This document shows positions 4,951 to 36,782 of a stretch of 64,000 nucleotides of DNA, piece by piece. Within the stretch, counting starts at the first letter, position 1. Each line of letters begins with the position of its first letter. The stretch is from a virus. Where the stretch lies: positions 1-64,000 of IMG/VR virus record IMGVR_UViG_3300037467_001050; one strand, given 5' to 3'. The translations under genes and the position numbers were made by a program. The notes beneath the pieces were generated by a model. The model saw only the letters and a list, made by a program, of their open reading frames with translations. It was not told where the DNA came from and made no database searches.

Positions 4951-5153
4951 CTCAGAACCTCCGTTTGCATTCCTGCAAATGAGTGAACGCGCCGGATCAC
5001 TCCAGCGCGCCGTGGAACCGCTGGGCCACCTCGCGGGTGTCGTAGGGGCCGATCACGTCGTCGTAGGTGTCGGCGCCGGGTGTCGGCAGAACCAGATACC
5101 AGCCGGTCAGCTCCGGGTTCGTGTCCTGGTGCTGGACGATCCGCCAGTCGGTC

Positions 5154-9571: not shown

Positions 9572-9633
9572 TGCTCTCACTTTCCTTGAATTCCTGCAAG
9601 CGAGGGGGCGGCCGAAGCCGCCCCGCCGGTGGA

Positions 9634-24209: not shown

Positions 24210-24249
24210 GGTGGTCCTCGTTTGCTTTCCTGCAAGTGAATGGTCGAGC

Positions 24250-24483
24250 TCAATCGCAGCCGAAGCCGCACTTCCGACTGATGATGAAGGCGCGCTCCTG
24301 CCGCCGCAGCTGGCCGGCGCGGCGCTTGGCGAAGGGTTCGGGGTGGCGGCCGAGCGAGCGCTCGCCGATGATGGACAGAACCTGCTCGATGGTGAGCAGT
24401 TCGCCCCATTGGTACTTTCGCGAGGCTCGTGCGTGGTAGGTGATCAGTGGTTGCTTCTGTGGCTTCACATCCAGGGGTCTCAT
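24250..24483 (-). CDS. Hypothetical protein
   Basis: GGAG RBS; 77 aa. Confidence 0.5.
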   Translation of the reverse strand: MRPLDVKPQKQPLITYHARASRKYQWGELLTIEQVLSIIGERSLGRHPEPFAKRRAGQLRRQERAFIISRKCGFGCD

Positions 24484-25891: not shown

Positions 25892-26155
25892 TCATGGATT
25901 GGCGCTCCCGATCTTCGCGAAGGTGTCGAGTTCGGTCGCGTCCATGACGGGCTCCAATCCCATCACGCGGGCCAACCGCACGAGTTCGTGCAGGCGGCCG
26001 GTCTTCGTCTTCCGGCGCATATTGCGCCGGTGGACCTCGACAGTGCGGGTGCTGAGATCGAGCTGCCGCGCTACCTCCTTGTTGCTGTAGCCAGCCGCAA
26101 GGTAGCGGAGGACCTCGGTCTCGCGGCGTGTTAGTGGGTGGCTGTCGCTGCTCAC
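25892..26155 (-). CDS. Stand-alone LuxR/FixJ-type HTH
   Basis: LTRRETEVLRYLAAGYSNKEVARQLDLSTRTVEVHRRNMRRK; GTGA overlap with upstream stop. Confidence 0.85.
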   Translation of the reverse strand: MSSDSHPLTRRETEVLRYLAAGYSNKEVARQLDLSTRTVEVHRRNMRRKTKTGRLHELVRLARVMGLEPVMDATELDTFAKIGSANP

Positions 26156-26469
26156 GACCGTCTCCTGATCTTTTCGTAGGGGAAGGGTGGTTGCTCGTCG
26201 GCGGTCTTCACCGGCACGCAGATGTCGATGGCCTCGAACCGCATGGACTCGCGGTTGAGTAGGCGGGCGCACGCCGTGCAGTAGTAGGCCAGCGTTGAAG
26301 TATTGAACCAGTTCTTACCAAGTATTGGAACTTGGCACGCAGTCCTGTTGCAGTTGCCGTCGAACTTGCCCTTCAGGGCCGCCCGGCGGTCCGCATCCGG
26401 GTCGCGGGCGACCACGGTCTCGTTGGGGTGGAGCAAGAGCCGATGCAGCCGTTCGCTGTAGGCGCCCAT
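26152..26469 (-). CDS. Small Cys-cluster phage protein
   Basis: GNCNRTAC...YYCTACA possible Zn finger. Confidence 0.6.
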   Translation of the reverse strand: MGAYSERLHRLLLHPNETVVARDPDADRRAALKGKFDGNCNRTACQVPILGKNWFNTSTLAYYCTACARLLNRESMRFEAIDICVPVKTADEQPPFPYEKIRRRS

Positions 26470-26893: not shown

Positions 26894-27487
26894 TCATTTC
26901 GGCTCTCCCTGCCAGTGCCGCATCATCCCCATCATCGCGAGCGGCATGGGGAACAGGTTCATCAGGAAGTGCCAGGTCACCCGGACGCCGACTGCGGCCT
27001 CGGTGCTCATCAGGCTCGTGCCACCGAACAGCGTGCTCAGACCCACCGGCTTCCCGAGCGTGAAGCAGGTCGCTGTGAGCATGAGGTGCTCGTAGAGGTG
27101 GAAGGTCTCGATCAGGACCGCCCACTTCACCCACCGGCCGCCGATCACCAGCCAGAGAGCGATCAGGCCGGACAGGAAGATCGAGTTTCCGGCGAGGTGC
27201 AGCAGCTCCATGCTGCGGGCCATCGCCACCTTGTAGGCCGCATCCGGCCACGCCCAGAGACCGAAGGTCTCGACGGCAGACGTGACCCACGGGGACATCC
27301 ACGGGGTGTCGCGCCCGCAGATGCCGGAAGCCGAGCCGAGCAGCCACACCGTGAACTGGGCGGCATGCTCGTAGAAGTGCCCGACCTGAAAGATCATGCT
27401 GCCGGACGCGACCAGGGCGAAAGCCGACCGGGCGCTGAACAGCGGAGAGGCTGGCTGGCGGATGGCGGCGAGAGCGGAGGCCATCAT
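26894..27487 (-). CDS. Multi-pass membrane protein with HxxEH motifs
   Basis: About 4 hydrophobic segments; GHFYEH, ELLHL, TFHLYEH. Confidence 0.65.
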   Translation of the reverse strand: MMASALAAIRQPASPLFSARSAFALVASGSMIFQVGHFYEHAAQFTVWLLGSASGICGRDTPWMSPWVTSAVETFGLWAWPDAAYKVAMARSMELLHLAGNSIFLSGLIALWLVIGGRWVKWAVLIETFHLYEHLMLTATCFTLGKPVGLSTLFGGTSLMSTEAAVGVRVTWHFLMNLFPMPLAMMGMMRHWQGEPK

Positions 27488-27707: not shown

Positions 27708-27793
27708 CCTCCTCTGGATCGCGCAACGGCGACTTGCATTCCTGCAAGCCCTCGGCGACACCCACCCCCGAAGGGATGGGTGGAACGAAGGGC

Positions 27794-28759
27794 TCAGGCT
27801 GCGTCGAGCATCTCGAACACGAGCTTGGACTGGCCGAGCACCTTGACCACGAGGATCTCGTCCTTCGGCGAGGCGAACTTGGCGAGCTCTGTCGCGTTCG
27901 ACTTGGCCCAACTCGCGTAGTCCTCGGTCGAGTACAGCTCGTAGTCGATGTTGCCGCTGTTGCGGCGCAGGACCATGAAGCCGTTCGGCTTGAACGGATC
28001 GGACGGCGGCGGAGCGACCGGCGCGGTAGCCTGCACCGGCAACCTCGAATGGAAGCCCTCGACCCAGTCCTTGGCCTCCTTCAGTCCCATGCCGGACAGG
28101 GCGCGCGTCTCCTTGATCGCCTCGATCTTCTTGGTCGGGATCAGGGACAGGATCAGGTTGAGCTTCTCCGCGATGTCGTTCTGCGAGAACAGCTTGATCG
28201 CGGGAGCAGGCGTCTCGACGCCGCCCGGGCCAAACGGCGTGCCGCGGCCGTGGTCGACGTTGCGCTGATCACGCGCCCGGAGGAGCTCCAGCGCACCCTC
28301 ACGGTTGCCGGAATTCACGAGGTGGATCATCCGGTCCAGCTCACCCTCCGCGCTCAGATTGACCGGATGGATGTCGGTCGCCGCTGGGTCGCTGACGTAG
28401 GAGGAGGTGGAAACGCTCTTCGATCCGCACATGGTGTGTGTCCCTTCCTTGGTTTTGCTGGTGATTTCGTCGAGGCGCTGCTTGGCGCTCTTGGCCTCGT
28501 CTTCCGTGACGTTGCCGGCCCATTTGCCGTCGAGGTCGAAGCGCAGAGCTCCTGCCTTGAGGCCGCGCAGGTACGTCGGACCGCCGGTGTAGTCGCGCAG
28601 CGCAGCGCGAACCTGATGGGTGAACAGGTCCGGCAGGCGCTCCAGGATGTCCCGATGAATGCCAACCTTCAGGGGCGGCTTTGCCCAGCCCTTGGGCTGG
28701 AACACATGCGGGAACTCCCGCACGAGCCGCTCGCGGATGCGGGTGGTTTCGTCAGACAC
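27794..28759 (-). CDS. ProQ/FinO domain fused to ribosomal bL12 (L7/L12) CTD-like domain
   Basis: FPHVF...PLKVGIHRDI...ALRDYT....YL.....GALRFDLDG (ProQ); KKIEAIKETRALSGMGLKEAKDWVE (bL12 CTD). Confidence 0.8.
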   Translation of the reverse strand: MSDETTRIRERLVREFPHVFQPKGWAKPPLKVGIHRDILERLPDLFTHQVRAALRDYTGGPTYLRGLKAGALRFDLDGKWAGNVTEDEAKSAKQRLDEITSKTKEGTHTMCGSKSVSTSSYVSDPAATDIHPVNLSAEGELDRMIHLVNSGNREGALELLRARDQRNVDHGRGTPFGPGGVETPAPAIKLFSQNDIAEKLNLILSLIPTKKIEAIKETRALSGMGLKEAKDWVEGFHSRLPVQATAPVAPPPSDPFKPNGFMVLRRNSGNIDYELYSTEDYASWAKSNATELAKFASPKDEILVVKVLGQSKLVFEMLDAA

Positions 28760-29210
28760 TGGCCACCCCGTTTGCATTCCTGCCAGTCTCCGGGGACACG
28801 GCATGGCGCTTGATGGTCTGCTCGCACAGCTCGATCACGGCCTCGCGTCCGATCCGACTCTCGCCGGCCTCGTCCACCACGAACGAACCGCGCTCGTTGA
28901 TGGACACCAGGGCCGCATCGCCGCCCGCCCGACCCATGTGGCGCAGGTGGATGAACGTCTCGACCATGGCATTCTCGATGCGAGGATCGACGGCGCCTTC
29001 CCCACCGAGATCACGGTCGACCTTCATGAGGCCGCCGAGCGCGCAGAAGCAGGTGGCGTGCTTGCTGACGACGAAGCACATTTCGCCATTGGCGTCCCTG
29101 GCCGCAGCACCTGTGGTGTGTTTGGCGGGGTCGTGGAACAGTTTGGACAGGCCGGACAGGATCTTGACCTGCCGGGGGTGGAGGGGAAACTCGGTACGGG
29201 GCAACGGCAC
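28752..29210 (-). CDS. Phage hypothetical protein (paralog pair with 29270-29650)
   Basis: G..ARD..G...ATCFCALGG matches G.YARDSDG...ACCRCSLGA. Confidence 0.6.
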   Translation of the reverse strand: MPLPRTEFPLHPRQVKILSGLSKLFHDPAKHTTGAAARDANGEMCFVVSKHATCFCALGGLMKVDRDLGGEGAVDPRIENAMVETFIHLRHMGRAGGDAALVSINERGSFVVDEAGESRIGREAVIELCEQTIKRHAVSPETGRNANGVASV

Positions 29211-29269: not shown

Positions 29270-29650
29270 TCAGGCCTGGGCGCGCTCGATTGCGAGATCG
29301 AAGGCGGCCATCACGGCTTGGTGCTCGTTCATGTCGGGCACGCGCTCCTCACCGTCGTTCAGCTCGACGATGGAGACGAACGCGGCCAGCGGATGTTGTC
29401 GCTTCACCAGTTCGAGGGCGGCGGCATCGAGCAGGCGGATGGTCGTGGCCAGATCTGGGACGAAACCATTCGGATCGACGCCAGCGGCACAGCCGACAGC
29501 CCCGAGGCTGCACCGGCAGCATGCATCCTCATCAAGGGCGCCGGTCGGCAGTCCGTCACTGTCCCGGGCATAGTCGCCCTGGCACCAGTTCTCGGGGTTG
29601 GCGATCAGGGCCTTGGCCTCGATCAGGATCTGCTTCGGGGACTTGGACAC
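29270..29650 (-). CDS. Phage hypothetical protein (DUF6197-like, from memory)
   Basis: LIEAKALIANPENWCQG..ARD...C.CSLGA...FDLAIERA. Confidence 0.65.
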   Translation of the reverse strand: MSKSPKQILIEAKALIANPENWCQGDYARDSDGLPTGALDEDACCRCSLGAVGCAAGVDPNGFVPDLATTIRLLDAAALELVKRQHPLAAFVSIVELNDGEERVPDMNEHQAVMAAFDLAIERAQA

Positions 29651-35885: not shown

Positions 35886-36782
35886 CCGCGCCCCGCAAGA
35901 TGATCGTCGCCTCCAGCCGGAGGTGGGCTCAGAACATCCGAGACAGCCTCGAGCTCGATCCGTCCGAGTGGGATGCCTTCGGCATAGGCGAGGGCCTGCC
36001 GGCCCGTCCCTACGACAAGATCCTGGTCTTCGCCGACCAGCTGGGCATCCGCCGCACGGAGACCGAGGTCGAGCATCAGCGCGCCTACATCAACATCAAC
36101 CTGCGCAACCGGCTCGCCGATGGCGGTGTCCTGAAGCTCCTCTGACACGTTTGCACTGCTTCGCTTGACTGACATTTGCAGGAATGCAAATGAGATCGAC
36201 GGAGAATGCAAATGAGCAAGCCTCAACAGTTCCGCGAGTGCCTGTTGACCCAGGACGGCCACCGGGCAACCGCCTGGATCCGCGCCGATCTCGCCGTCAT
36301 CGGAAACTCGGTGACCATCCCGGAAGTGTCCGGACGGTGGACGATCTTCGATGTCGGCCGCACCAAGGATGGCCTGCAGCTGCGCGCGATCGCCGCCGAT
36401 CAGCCGCCGCTGCCGCGCCCGCGCATCGAGCTGGCAAAGCCCCGCGATCCCTTCCCGGGCTTCGAGCCGCCCGCGCCCGATCCGATCGTCCCGCATCGCT
36501 CGCACTGGGTGCCGGCATGAGCATCACCTTCGAGGACGAGCTCACCAAGCTCATCCGGCGCATGGCGCCCGGCGAGACGCTCCTCTGGTCCCAGCCGCTC
36601 GGTAGGGCTCTCGAGGCCGTCGCCTACTCCGCTCAGCTCGACCGCCACAATGGCCGGTCGGAGGCCCGCTACGAGAAGATCTTCGAGCGCGTGAAGGCGA
36701 TCCTGTCGTCGAACGCCACGAAGTTCGAGCTCGGGCTGGCCGTCGGCATCGCTCTAGCACTCGCAACCGAAGGATCCATTCA

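Follow-up and report, generated by a model that had tools for sequence, protein, structure and literature searches.

The window analysed here is a stretch of 64,000 nucleotides that opens a viral record of 122,894 bp (IMGVR_UViG_3300037467_001050) rated complete by CheckV. On its minus strand, at positions 27794-28759, lies a gene for a protein of 321 amino acids in which an RNA-binding FinO/ProQ-family domain is fused in frame to a unit homologous to part of the C-terminal domain found in the ribosomal stalk protein bL12. From the N-terminus the protein consists of the ProQ/FinO domain, a helical middle region, the L12-like unit, a Pro/Ala-rich hinge and a small α/β end domain. The minus-strand frame extends over 346 codons between one stop and the next, and the Pfam matches to both families fall inside it with zero internal stops. 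This bears out the initial annotation, which had read the locus as one open frame carrying a ProQ/FinO domain and a bL12 signature. The signature quoted there, KKIEAIKETRALSGMGLKEAKDWVE, is present in the protein, and the further C-terminal domain that it proposed is found as a conserved domain after the signature.

The gene ends at the stop codon at 27794-27796. The GTG at 28759 is thought, as first annotated, to be the true start, because a copy of a repeated motif (described below) lies 11 nt upstream with the usual spacing, the database gene call (P0002, 321 amino acids) begins at the same codon, and the N-termini of homologues match the GTG-started protein in length. Residue numbers in this text count from an ATG at 28804 and not from this GTG.

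The FinO/ProQ domain (28445-28747, minus strand) is recognized by Pfam, AlphaFold2 (AF2) and Foldseek. The Pfam family ProQ (PF04352) matches residues 20-120 with an E-value of 2e-23 and 82.8 bits against a cut-off of 27, covering profile positions 4-105 of 109; in a genome scan the PF04352 match has an E-value of 2.1e-25. The AF2 model of residues 18-121 has a predicted local distance difference test score (pLDDT) of ~90 and shows the FinO fold. Foldseek matches it to RocC (7rgt/7rgs, E-value 5e-7 to 2e-6, TM-score (TMt) 0.77-0.86, root mean squared deviation 1.5-1.7 Å), and its matches also include ProQ, FinO and NMB1681. A HMMER alignment to 5nb9 indicates that K35, R58, Y70, L71 and R80 of E. 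coli ProQ are kept and that K54 is replaced; all six residues have been given an RNA-binding role by a genetic study (PMC7192607).

The fusion protein belongs to the FinO/ProQ family but is not ProQ proper. Against the NCBIfam equivalog for ProQ (NF003434) it scores 71.7 bits, under the cut-off of 127, with only the N-terminal domain matched, and it is also under the NCBIfam equivalog cut-off for FinO. As in ProQ, a flexible linker connects the FinO fold to a further folded domain. However, in comparison with E. coli ProQ the fusion protein has no Tudor domain, does not keep K54 and carries an L12-like module as its extension; in the AF2 model the C-terminal domain is β-β-α-β(-β) and not the all-β Tudor fold. 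The protein differs from known FinO/ProQ proteins in being phage-encoded, and it occurs in the Alphaproteobacteria, a lineage that is said to have imported its FinO proteins recently (PMC9977716).

The L12-like module

The FinO domain is followed by a helical middle region (28241-28351, minus strand) of no known family, defined by AF2 and by alignment, with an RD..N...G motif. Its predicted helices (residues 152-164 and 168-188) have a pLDDT of 57-68, and R178, D179, N182 and G186 are invariant. The L12-like unit (28043-28189, minus strand) comes next and is supported by Pfam, hhalign and AF2. It is predicted to consist of three helices, a helix 0 and the equivalents of bL12 α4 and α5. Ribosomal_L12 (PF00542) matches residues 216-252 with an E-value of 9e-9 and 36 bits (cut-off 25.9), and hhalign of the fusion family against 39 genuine bL12 sequences gives a probability of 98.7% and an E-value of 3.9e-16 over 41 columns (bL12 58-98 of 124). 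The initial annotation had assigned a bL12 C-terminal domain to this region. The homology stands, but the domain is not complete, because the Pfam match spans only profile positions 2-38 of 67, corresponding to β1-α4-α5.

The AF2 model of residues 200-336, built on an 11-row alignment, has a mean pLDDT of 82, with helices at 208-221, 226-237 and 241-254 (pLDDT ~90). The three-helix unit is separated by the hinge from the β-β-α-β domain, and the predicted template-modelling score of 0.46 suggests that the two are independent. The Pro/Ala-rich hinge (27983-28042, minus strand) has a pLDDT of 64-72 and no secondary structure. The α/β end domain (27806-27982, minus strand; pLDDT ~92) is of no known family and is kept in all family members; it has a β-β-α-β arrangement, to which the full-length model adds a fifth strand. 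A fold search with the L12-like unit and end domain returned nothing at an E-value <= 0.001 in the PDB or BFVD, and a protein atlas gave no usable match for the C-terminal domain. The best VIA-align results, PaaB (Z 5.7) and ClpS (Z ~4), both lie in the range of common arrangements. The idea that the end domain supplies the missing β2-α6-β3 of a split bL12 C-terminal domain is disfavoured, as it was unsupported by hhalign and AF2 does not pack the two parts against each other.

The likeness to bL12 extends to homology with β1-α4-α5, to the positions that contact EF-G and EF-Tu and to the adjacent Pro/Ala hinge. An ungapped match to E. coli bL12 53-93 places I227, E228, A229, K231, L241 and E243 at V66, A67, V68, K70, L80 and E82, respectively, and in bL12 V66-V68, K70, L80 and E82 contact the G' subdomain of EF-G (PMC5887453). 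These six residues and their neighbours are invariant in the fusion family. Mean pairwise identity is highest in the 30-residue L12 motif (0.66), followed by the FinO domain (0.47), end domain (0.34), middle region (0.28) and hinge (0.22). Judged by this pattern, the bL12-derived α4-α5 surface is under strong constraint. In contrast to bL12, the fusion protein has no N-terminal dimerization and uL10-binding domain and no β2-α6-β3, and its unit is predicted to be all-helical. With TIGR00855, the bL12 family model, the score is 29 bits (cut-off 84.4), and PF16320, the bL12 N-terminal dimerization and uL10-binding domain, gives a sub-threshold 13.6 bits (cut-off 25) that overlaps α5 and the hinge. 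With the domain content deduced here, the fusion protein cannot be a component of the ribosomal stalk.

An exhaustive search with the ProQ-less half of the protein found 746 proteins at an E-value <= 0.001. Most of the best 150 of these have two to six copies of the same ~30-residue motif, 52-69 residues apart with Pro/Ala linkers between them, and some have an N-terminal hydrophobic segment. The repeat is the same three-helix unit as in the fusion protein, since each copy has its own preceding helix. All nine family units score 54-69 bits against a hidden Markov model (HMM) of the repeat class and 41-53 bits against one of true bL12 units, a comparison biased by the fact that both sets were gathered by similarity to the fusion family. 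On these scores the L12-like unit looks closer to a widespread non-ribosomal L12-like repeat than to rplL. The tandem repeats, in which PF00542 and DUF6793 overlap, share the unit (..LL..G.KIEAIK..R..TG.GLKEAKD.VE..) and the Pro/Ala linkers that follow it, but the proteins differ from the fusion in their two to six copies, frequent N-terminal hydrophobic anchor and lack of both a FinO domain and a C-terminal α/β domain.

The bacterial proteins with two to six tandem L12-like units include P0027, P0029, P0031, P0055, P0130, P0150, P0167 and ~140 more; DUF6793 overlaps the L12-like motif, and several of the tandem-unit proteins have an N-terminal hydrophobic anchor. A separate set of large proteins (P0028, P0050, P0077 and P0104) contains two to six complete bL12 C-terminal domains, accompanied by LRV/HEAT repeats in P0028 and P0077 and by a PNP_UDP phosphorylase domain and pentapeptide repeats in P0104. 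Small phage proteins with a single L12-like unit also exist. The open reading frame of 124 amino acids in L003 (IMGVR_UViG_3300037466_002435) has one L12-like unit and an end domain with weak similarity (E-value 0.04 in a small set), and by its make-up may represent the module in its smallest form.

As the initial annotation said of stand-alone ones, bL12-like domains are documented in phages; they occur both stand-alone and embedded in larger proteins, and have been proposed to provide translation-factor interfaces (Mizuno et al., 2019; PMC6375957). The fusion resembles these proteins in carrying a bL12-derived segment within a larger phage polypeptide, with PF00542 above threshold inside a 321-amino-acid phage protein, and in having relatives of its flanking parts that lack the segment or are rearranged. 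It differs in that its L12 unit is the short three-helix form and in its FinO/ProQ partner, none being reported for the characterized examples, which come from Salmonella, Erwinia, Ralstonia and roseophages. No paper on a FinO/ProQ-bL12 fusion was found in the literature searched, in agreement with the claim of novelty made at first annotation. FinO/ProQ proteins with extensions (PMC9977716) and embedded phage bL12 domains (PMC6375957) were already known.

Conservation of the fusion and separability of its parts

The fusion is real, and a very small family of phages has kept it. In HMMER searches, both word-indexed and exhaustive, the architecture of ProQ, L12 and C-terminal domains turned up again in proteins of 305-328 amino acids (P0003-P0007, P0030 and P0154) that are 33-47% identical to the window protein, so that at least seven other protein clusters have the in-frame fusion. 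These homologues come from isolates and other metagenomes, and one of them, WP_147750863.1 of Methylobacterium sp. WL120, lies on a 55-kb contig listed as viral in IMG/VR. A stop between the domains in homologues, which would have marked the fusion as an artefact, is not seen; the homologues stay fused in frame. Since this architecture is shared by the homologous clusters and by the syntenic Methylobacterium viral contig, the fusion is not an artefact of assembly. A 42-kb contig of a public run also spans the fusion gene with zero differences, but is not independent evidence because the run may be the source sample. The suspicion of a chimeric assembly or a frameshifted gene pair read as one, which the metagenomic origin of the sequence and the existence of ProQ-less forms might raise, is effectively refuted by the independent homologues and by the lack of stops in frame, with the identical 42-kb contig pointing the same way under the reservation just given.

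The family is very rare, with one or two members per 90%-identity cluster among ~15 billion proteins, and the database names of its members are only 'ribosomal protein L7/L12' or 'sRNA-binding protein'. Searches by tblastn gave no match in 50,697 phage records, and in plasmid records gave matches confined to the ProQ part. No full-module match was found in 401 sampled genomes of a Bradyrhizobium's order, viral scans with P0004, P0005 and P0008 as queries yielded no more fused members, and a metagenome scan with the N-terminal alignment yielded just two genes, both ProQ-only and stand-alone. A profile scan of genome contigs with the family alignment was dominated by true rplL genes, because its patterns were taken from the L12 motif. 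Many short contigs of soil metagenomes, from two studies, align to this motif (window 28059-28133) at 80-90% DNA identity; they presumably stem from other organisms' rplL or L12-like genes, the motif being conserved even in DNA.

Judging from the sequences of relatives, the two halves of the protein are separable modules. The protein P0008 (191 amino acids, Methylobacterium) has no FinO domain and begins exactly at the domain boundary, and P0140 (264 amino acids), with two L12-like units, is likewise without a FinO domain. At the same boundary the window gene contains an internal start site, pointed out in the initial annotation as AAGGAAGG followed by an ATG (MCGSK) at 28432. The SD-like (Shine-Dalgarno-like) sequence AAGGAAGGGA and the in-frame ATG (28430-28432) together occupy 28430-28450 on the minus strand and are the candidate start of a 212-amino-acid ProQ-less isoform. 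The site was compared as DNA in two loci, the window and the Methylobacterium homologue L001, where an ATG likewise stands at this domain boundary with AAGAAGGAA upstream at the same distance. The boundary residue is Met in seven of the eight fused members and Val in P0007, and codons of Lys-Glu type lie a few residues upstream of the boundary Met. The site itself is confirmed and has comparative support from both L001 and P0008; the internally initiated isoform is plausible, because the shared site lies at the boundary at which ProQ-less relatives start.

Genomic setting and transcription unit

The phage genome has a G+C content of ~65% and encodes a large terminase, a portal, a major head protein and an rIIA-like protein as well as a cluster of tRNA genes. 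The public sequencing runs that contain its DNA are soil metagenomes, and no RNA run is among those listed. PADLOC gave no defence-system match. The fusion gene sits in the left arm, where genes run leftward, and all of its neighbours described here are on the minus strand. Upstream are a DUF6197 gene (29270-29650) and, between it and the fusion gene, an open reading frame of 152 amino acids with no assigned family (28752-29210). Downstream is a gene for a DUF6008 membrane protein with His-rich motifs (26894-27487), and the same leftward block contains a gene for a LuxR/GerE-type helix-turn-helix regulator (25892-26272). The viral contig of Methylobacterium sp. WL120 shows synteny with the window at the DUF6197 and DUF6008 genes, the DUF6008 proteins being 67% identical.

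The repeated motif upstream of the GTG start is the 16-nt sequence CTTGCAGGAATGCAAR, which occurs 27 times across the 122.9-kb genome when up to 2 mismatches are allowed. Every copy is co-oriented with the genes and lies between a stop and the next start, usually 10-13 nt ahead of the start codon, with its SD plus ATG. From this distribution the motif is probably the phage's own promoter or regulator site. It was not read as a sigma-54 promoter, since its GG/GC spacing does not suit one. The copy ahead of the fusion gene (28771-28786, minus strand) has 2 mismatches. Other copies in the window start, for example, at 4964, 7867, 9585, 12375, 16579, 24221, 27733, 28771 and 30769 on the minus strand and at 36175, 43323 and 58421 on the plus strand. 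A second partial copy, GGAATGCAAATG, opens many of the genes downstream of CTTGCAGGAATGCAAR, giving an ATG-CAA-ATG (Met-Gln-Met) double start context; examples lie in the 27713 and 36200 regions of the window and in the 74250, 91000 and 116240 regions of the genome.

An extended stem-loop with interruptions and a UUCG loop (27743-27795, minus strand) begins at the stop codon of the fusion gene. The minimum free energy is -51.8 kcal/mol over 111 nt (z -2.67), and a homologous hairpin (z -3.0) follows the stop in the Methylobacterium contig L001. The intergenic DNA of the two loci is 78% identical, and one pair of the hairpin is A-U in one locus and G-C in the other. The stem-loop is probably a terminator or a 3'-end stabilizer. 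It is also a candidate ligand of the FinO type, as it resembles the RNA ends recognized by FinO domains. A perfect motif copy, CTTGCAGGAATGCAAG (27733-27748, minus strand), precedes the next gene and marks the end of the fusion transcription unit. By this arrangement the fusion gene seems to form a transcription unit by itself, with a stable hairpin at its 3' end. The layout of hairpin and then motif recurs at other gene junctions of the phage. At several of them GC-rich UUCG-tetraloop hairpins that lack a U-tract stand just upstream of the motif (9600-9630, 24240-24265 and 27752-27793, minus strand) and are candidate terminators or 3'-end stabilizers.

A possible RNA-anchored adaptor and its alternatives

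Ribosomal bL12 catches EF-G, EF-Tu, IF2 and RF3 via its α4-α5 surface. The reading tentatively favoured here is that the fusion protein is a modular, beads-on-a-string adaptor that is anchored on RNA and reaches the translation machinery. The N-terminal FinO/ProQ domain would hold the protein to structured RNA, and most likely to 3' hairpins that carry a short tail, as its family membership and conserved RNA-binding residues suggest. A flexible linker would lead from there to the second module, formed by the helical region, the three-helix L12-like unit, the Pro/Ala hinge and the α/β domain, and this module would probably also be made alone from the conserved internal ribosome-binding site and ATG. 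The L12-like unit would display the α4-α5 surface that bL12 uses for EF-G, EF-Tu, IF2 and RF3. Because this surface is retained, the module would most likely contact a translational GTPase or the GTPase-associated centre of the ribosome, and so tie the bound RNA to translation.

A complex prediction of the L12-like unit with residues 1-300 of Methylobacterium EF-G scored 0.50, compared with 0.02 for the highest-scoring of three controls. At least 80% of contacts are shared between the runs, the partner pLDDT is at least 73, and the result was graded as weak support. Of 80 solved complexes 58 reach the mark for a pass, as do 2 of 110 mismatched pairs; scores of 0.60 or below include only 7 of the 80 solved complexes, yet both of the mismatches that pass. 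The pass may also come from the predictor's memory, because ribosome structures with the bL12 C-terminal domain on EF-G have been solved. The recruitment or sequestration of translation factors suggested in the initial annotation therefore stays at the level of inference after this weak and possibly remembered pass.

Several points weigh against the adaptor. The EF-G score falls in a range in which wrong passes outnumber right ones, and even on the ribosome bL12 makes weak and transient contacts with the factors. The unit represents only one half of the C-terminal domain: hhalign detected no homology to β2-α6-β3 and gave no second alignment, and AF2 places a helix where bL12 has strand β1. The bL12 C-terminal domain is not among the top structural matches listed, an absence that is not an exclusion. 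Finally, as the unit is found in hundreds of unrelated non-ribosomal proteins, its conserved surface may serve another partner.

The same truncated three-helix form, grouping with non-ribosomal repeats, speaks for a plain phage RNA chaperone. The parts after the FinO domain would then be a lineage-specific extension for duplexing or oligomerization with no link to translation factors, a possibility that is real if somewhat doubtful. FinO/ProQ proteins have repeatedly gained diverse, lineage-specific and unrelated extensions that supply chaperone activity (PMC9977716), the linker and Tudor domain of enterobacterial ProQ being comparable, and the fold searches point to no specific C-terminal function. 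However, the L12-like surface is nearly invariant, beyond the conservation of the FinO domain, which would be unusual for a spacer or a chaperone tail. The module should also have a function of its own, because it is found without a FinO domain in P0008, P0140 and L003.

The adaptor can be drawn more boldly as a portable piece of the stalk on an RNA anchor. The FinO domain would sit on 3' hairpins of phage transcripts or on the tRNA-like RNAs that the phage itself encodes at 45.5-47.1 kb, the L12-like unit would recruit EF-G, EF-Tu or IF2, and the internal ProQ-less isoform would tune or compete with this activity. The three-helix units of hundreds of bacterial proteins, often in membrane-anchored tandem arrays, would then be general extra-ribosomal binders of translational GTPases, a kind of module not described before. 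In this extended form the proposal is unlikely. A stalk decoy is more improbable still: the module, especially as the ProQ-less isoform, would titrate EF-G, EF-Tu or IF2 off host ribosomes so that host translation is damped or reprogrammed, with the FinO-linked form localizing or regulating the activity. The conserved factor-contact residues, the weak pass with EF-G (0.50 against a control of 0.02), the plausible internal isoform and the existence of phage bL12-domain proteins with proposed factor interfaces (PMC6375957) would all suit such a decoy. On general grounds, though, one low-affinity unit per chain would be a poor rival to the four to eight copies of bL12 on each ribosome and to abundant EF-Tu.

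Time and again ProQ proteins have turned up together with ribosomes and tRNAs (PMC9977716), through no known physical link, and the fusion joins a FinO domain to the GTPase-catching surface of the stalk. If the unit binds factors, the protein would serve as a small natural device for coupling specific RNAs to translation, and a culturable system is available in the homologue of Methylobacterium sp. WL120 (WP_147750863.1). Factor binding would also give a first functional handle on a large and uncharacterized class of L12-like repeats.

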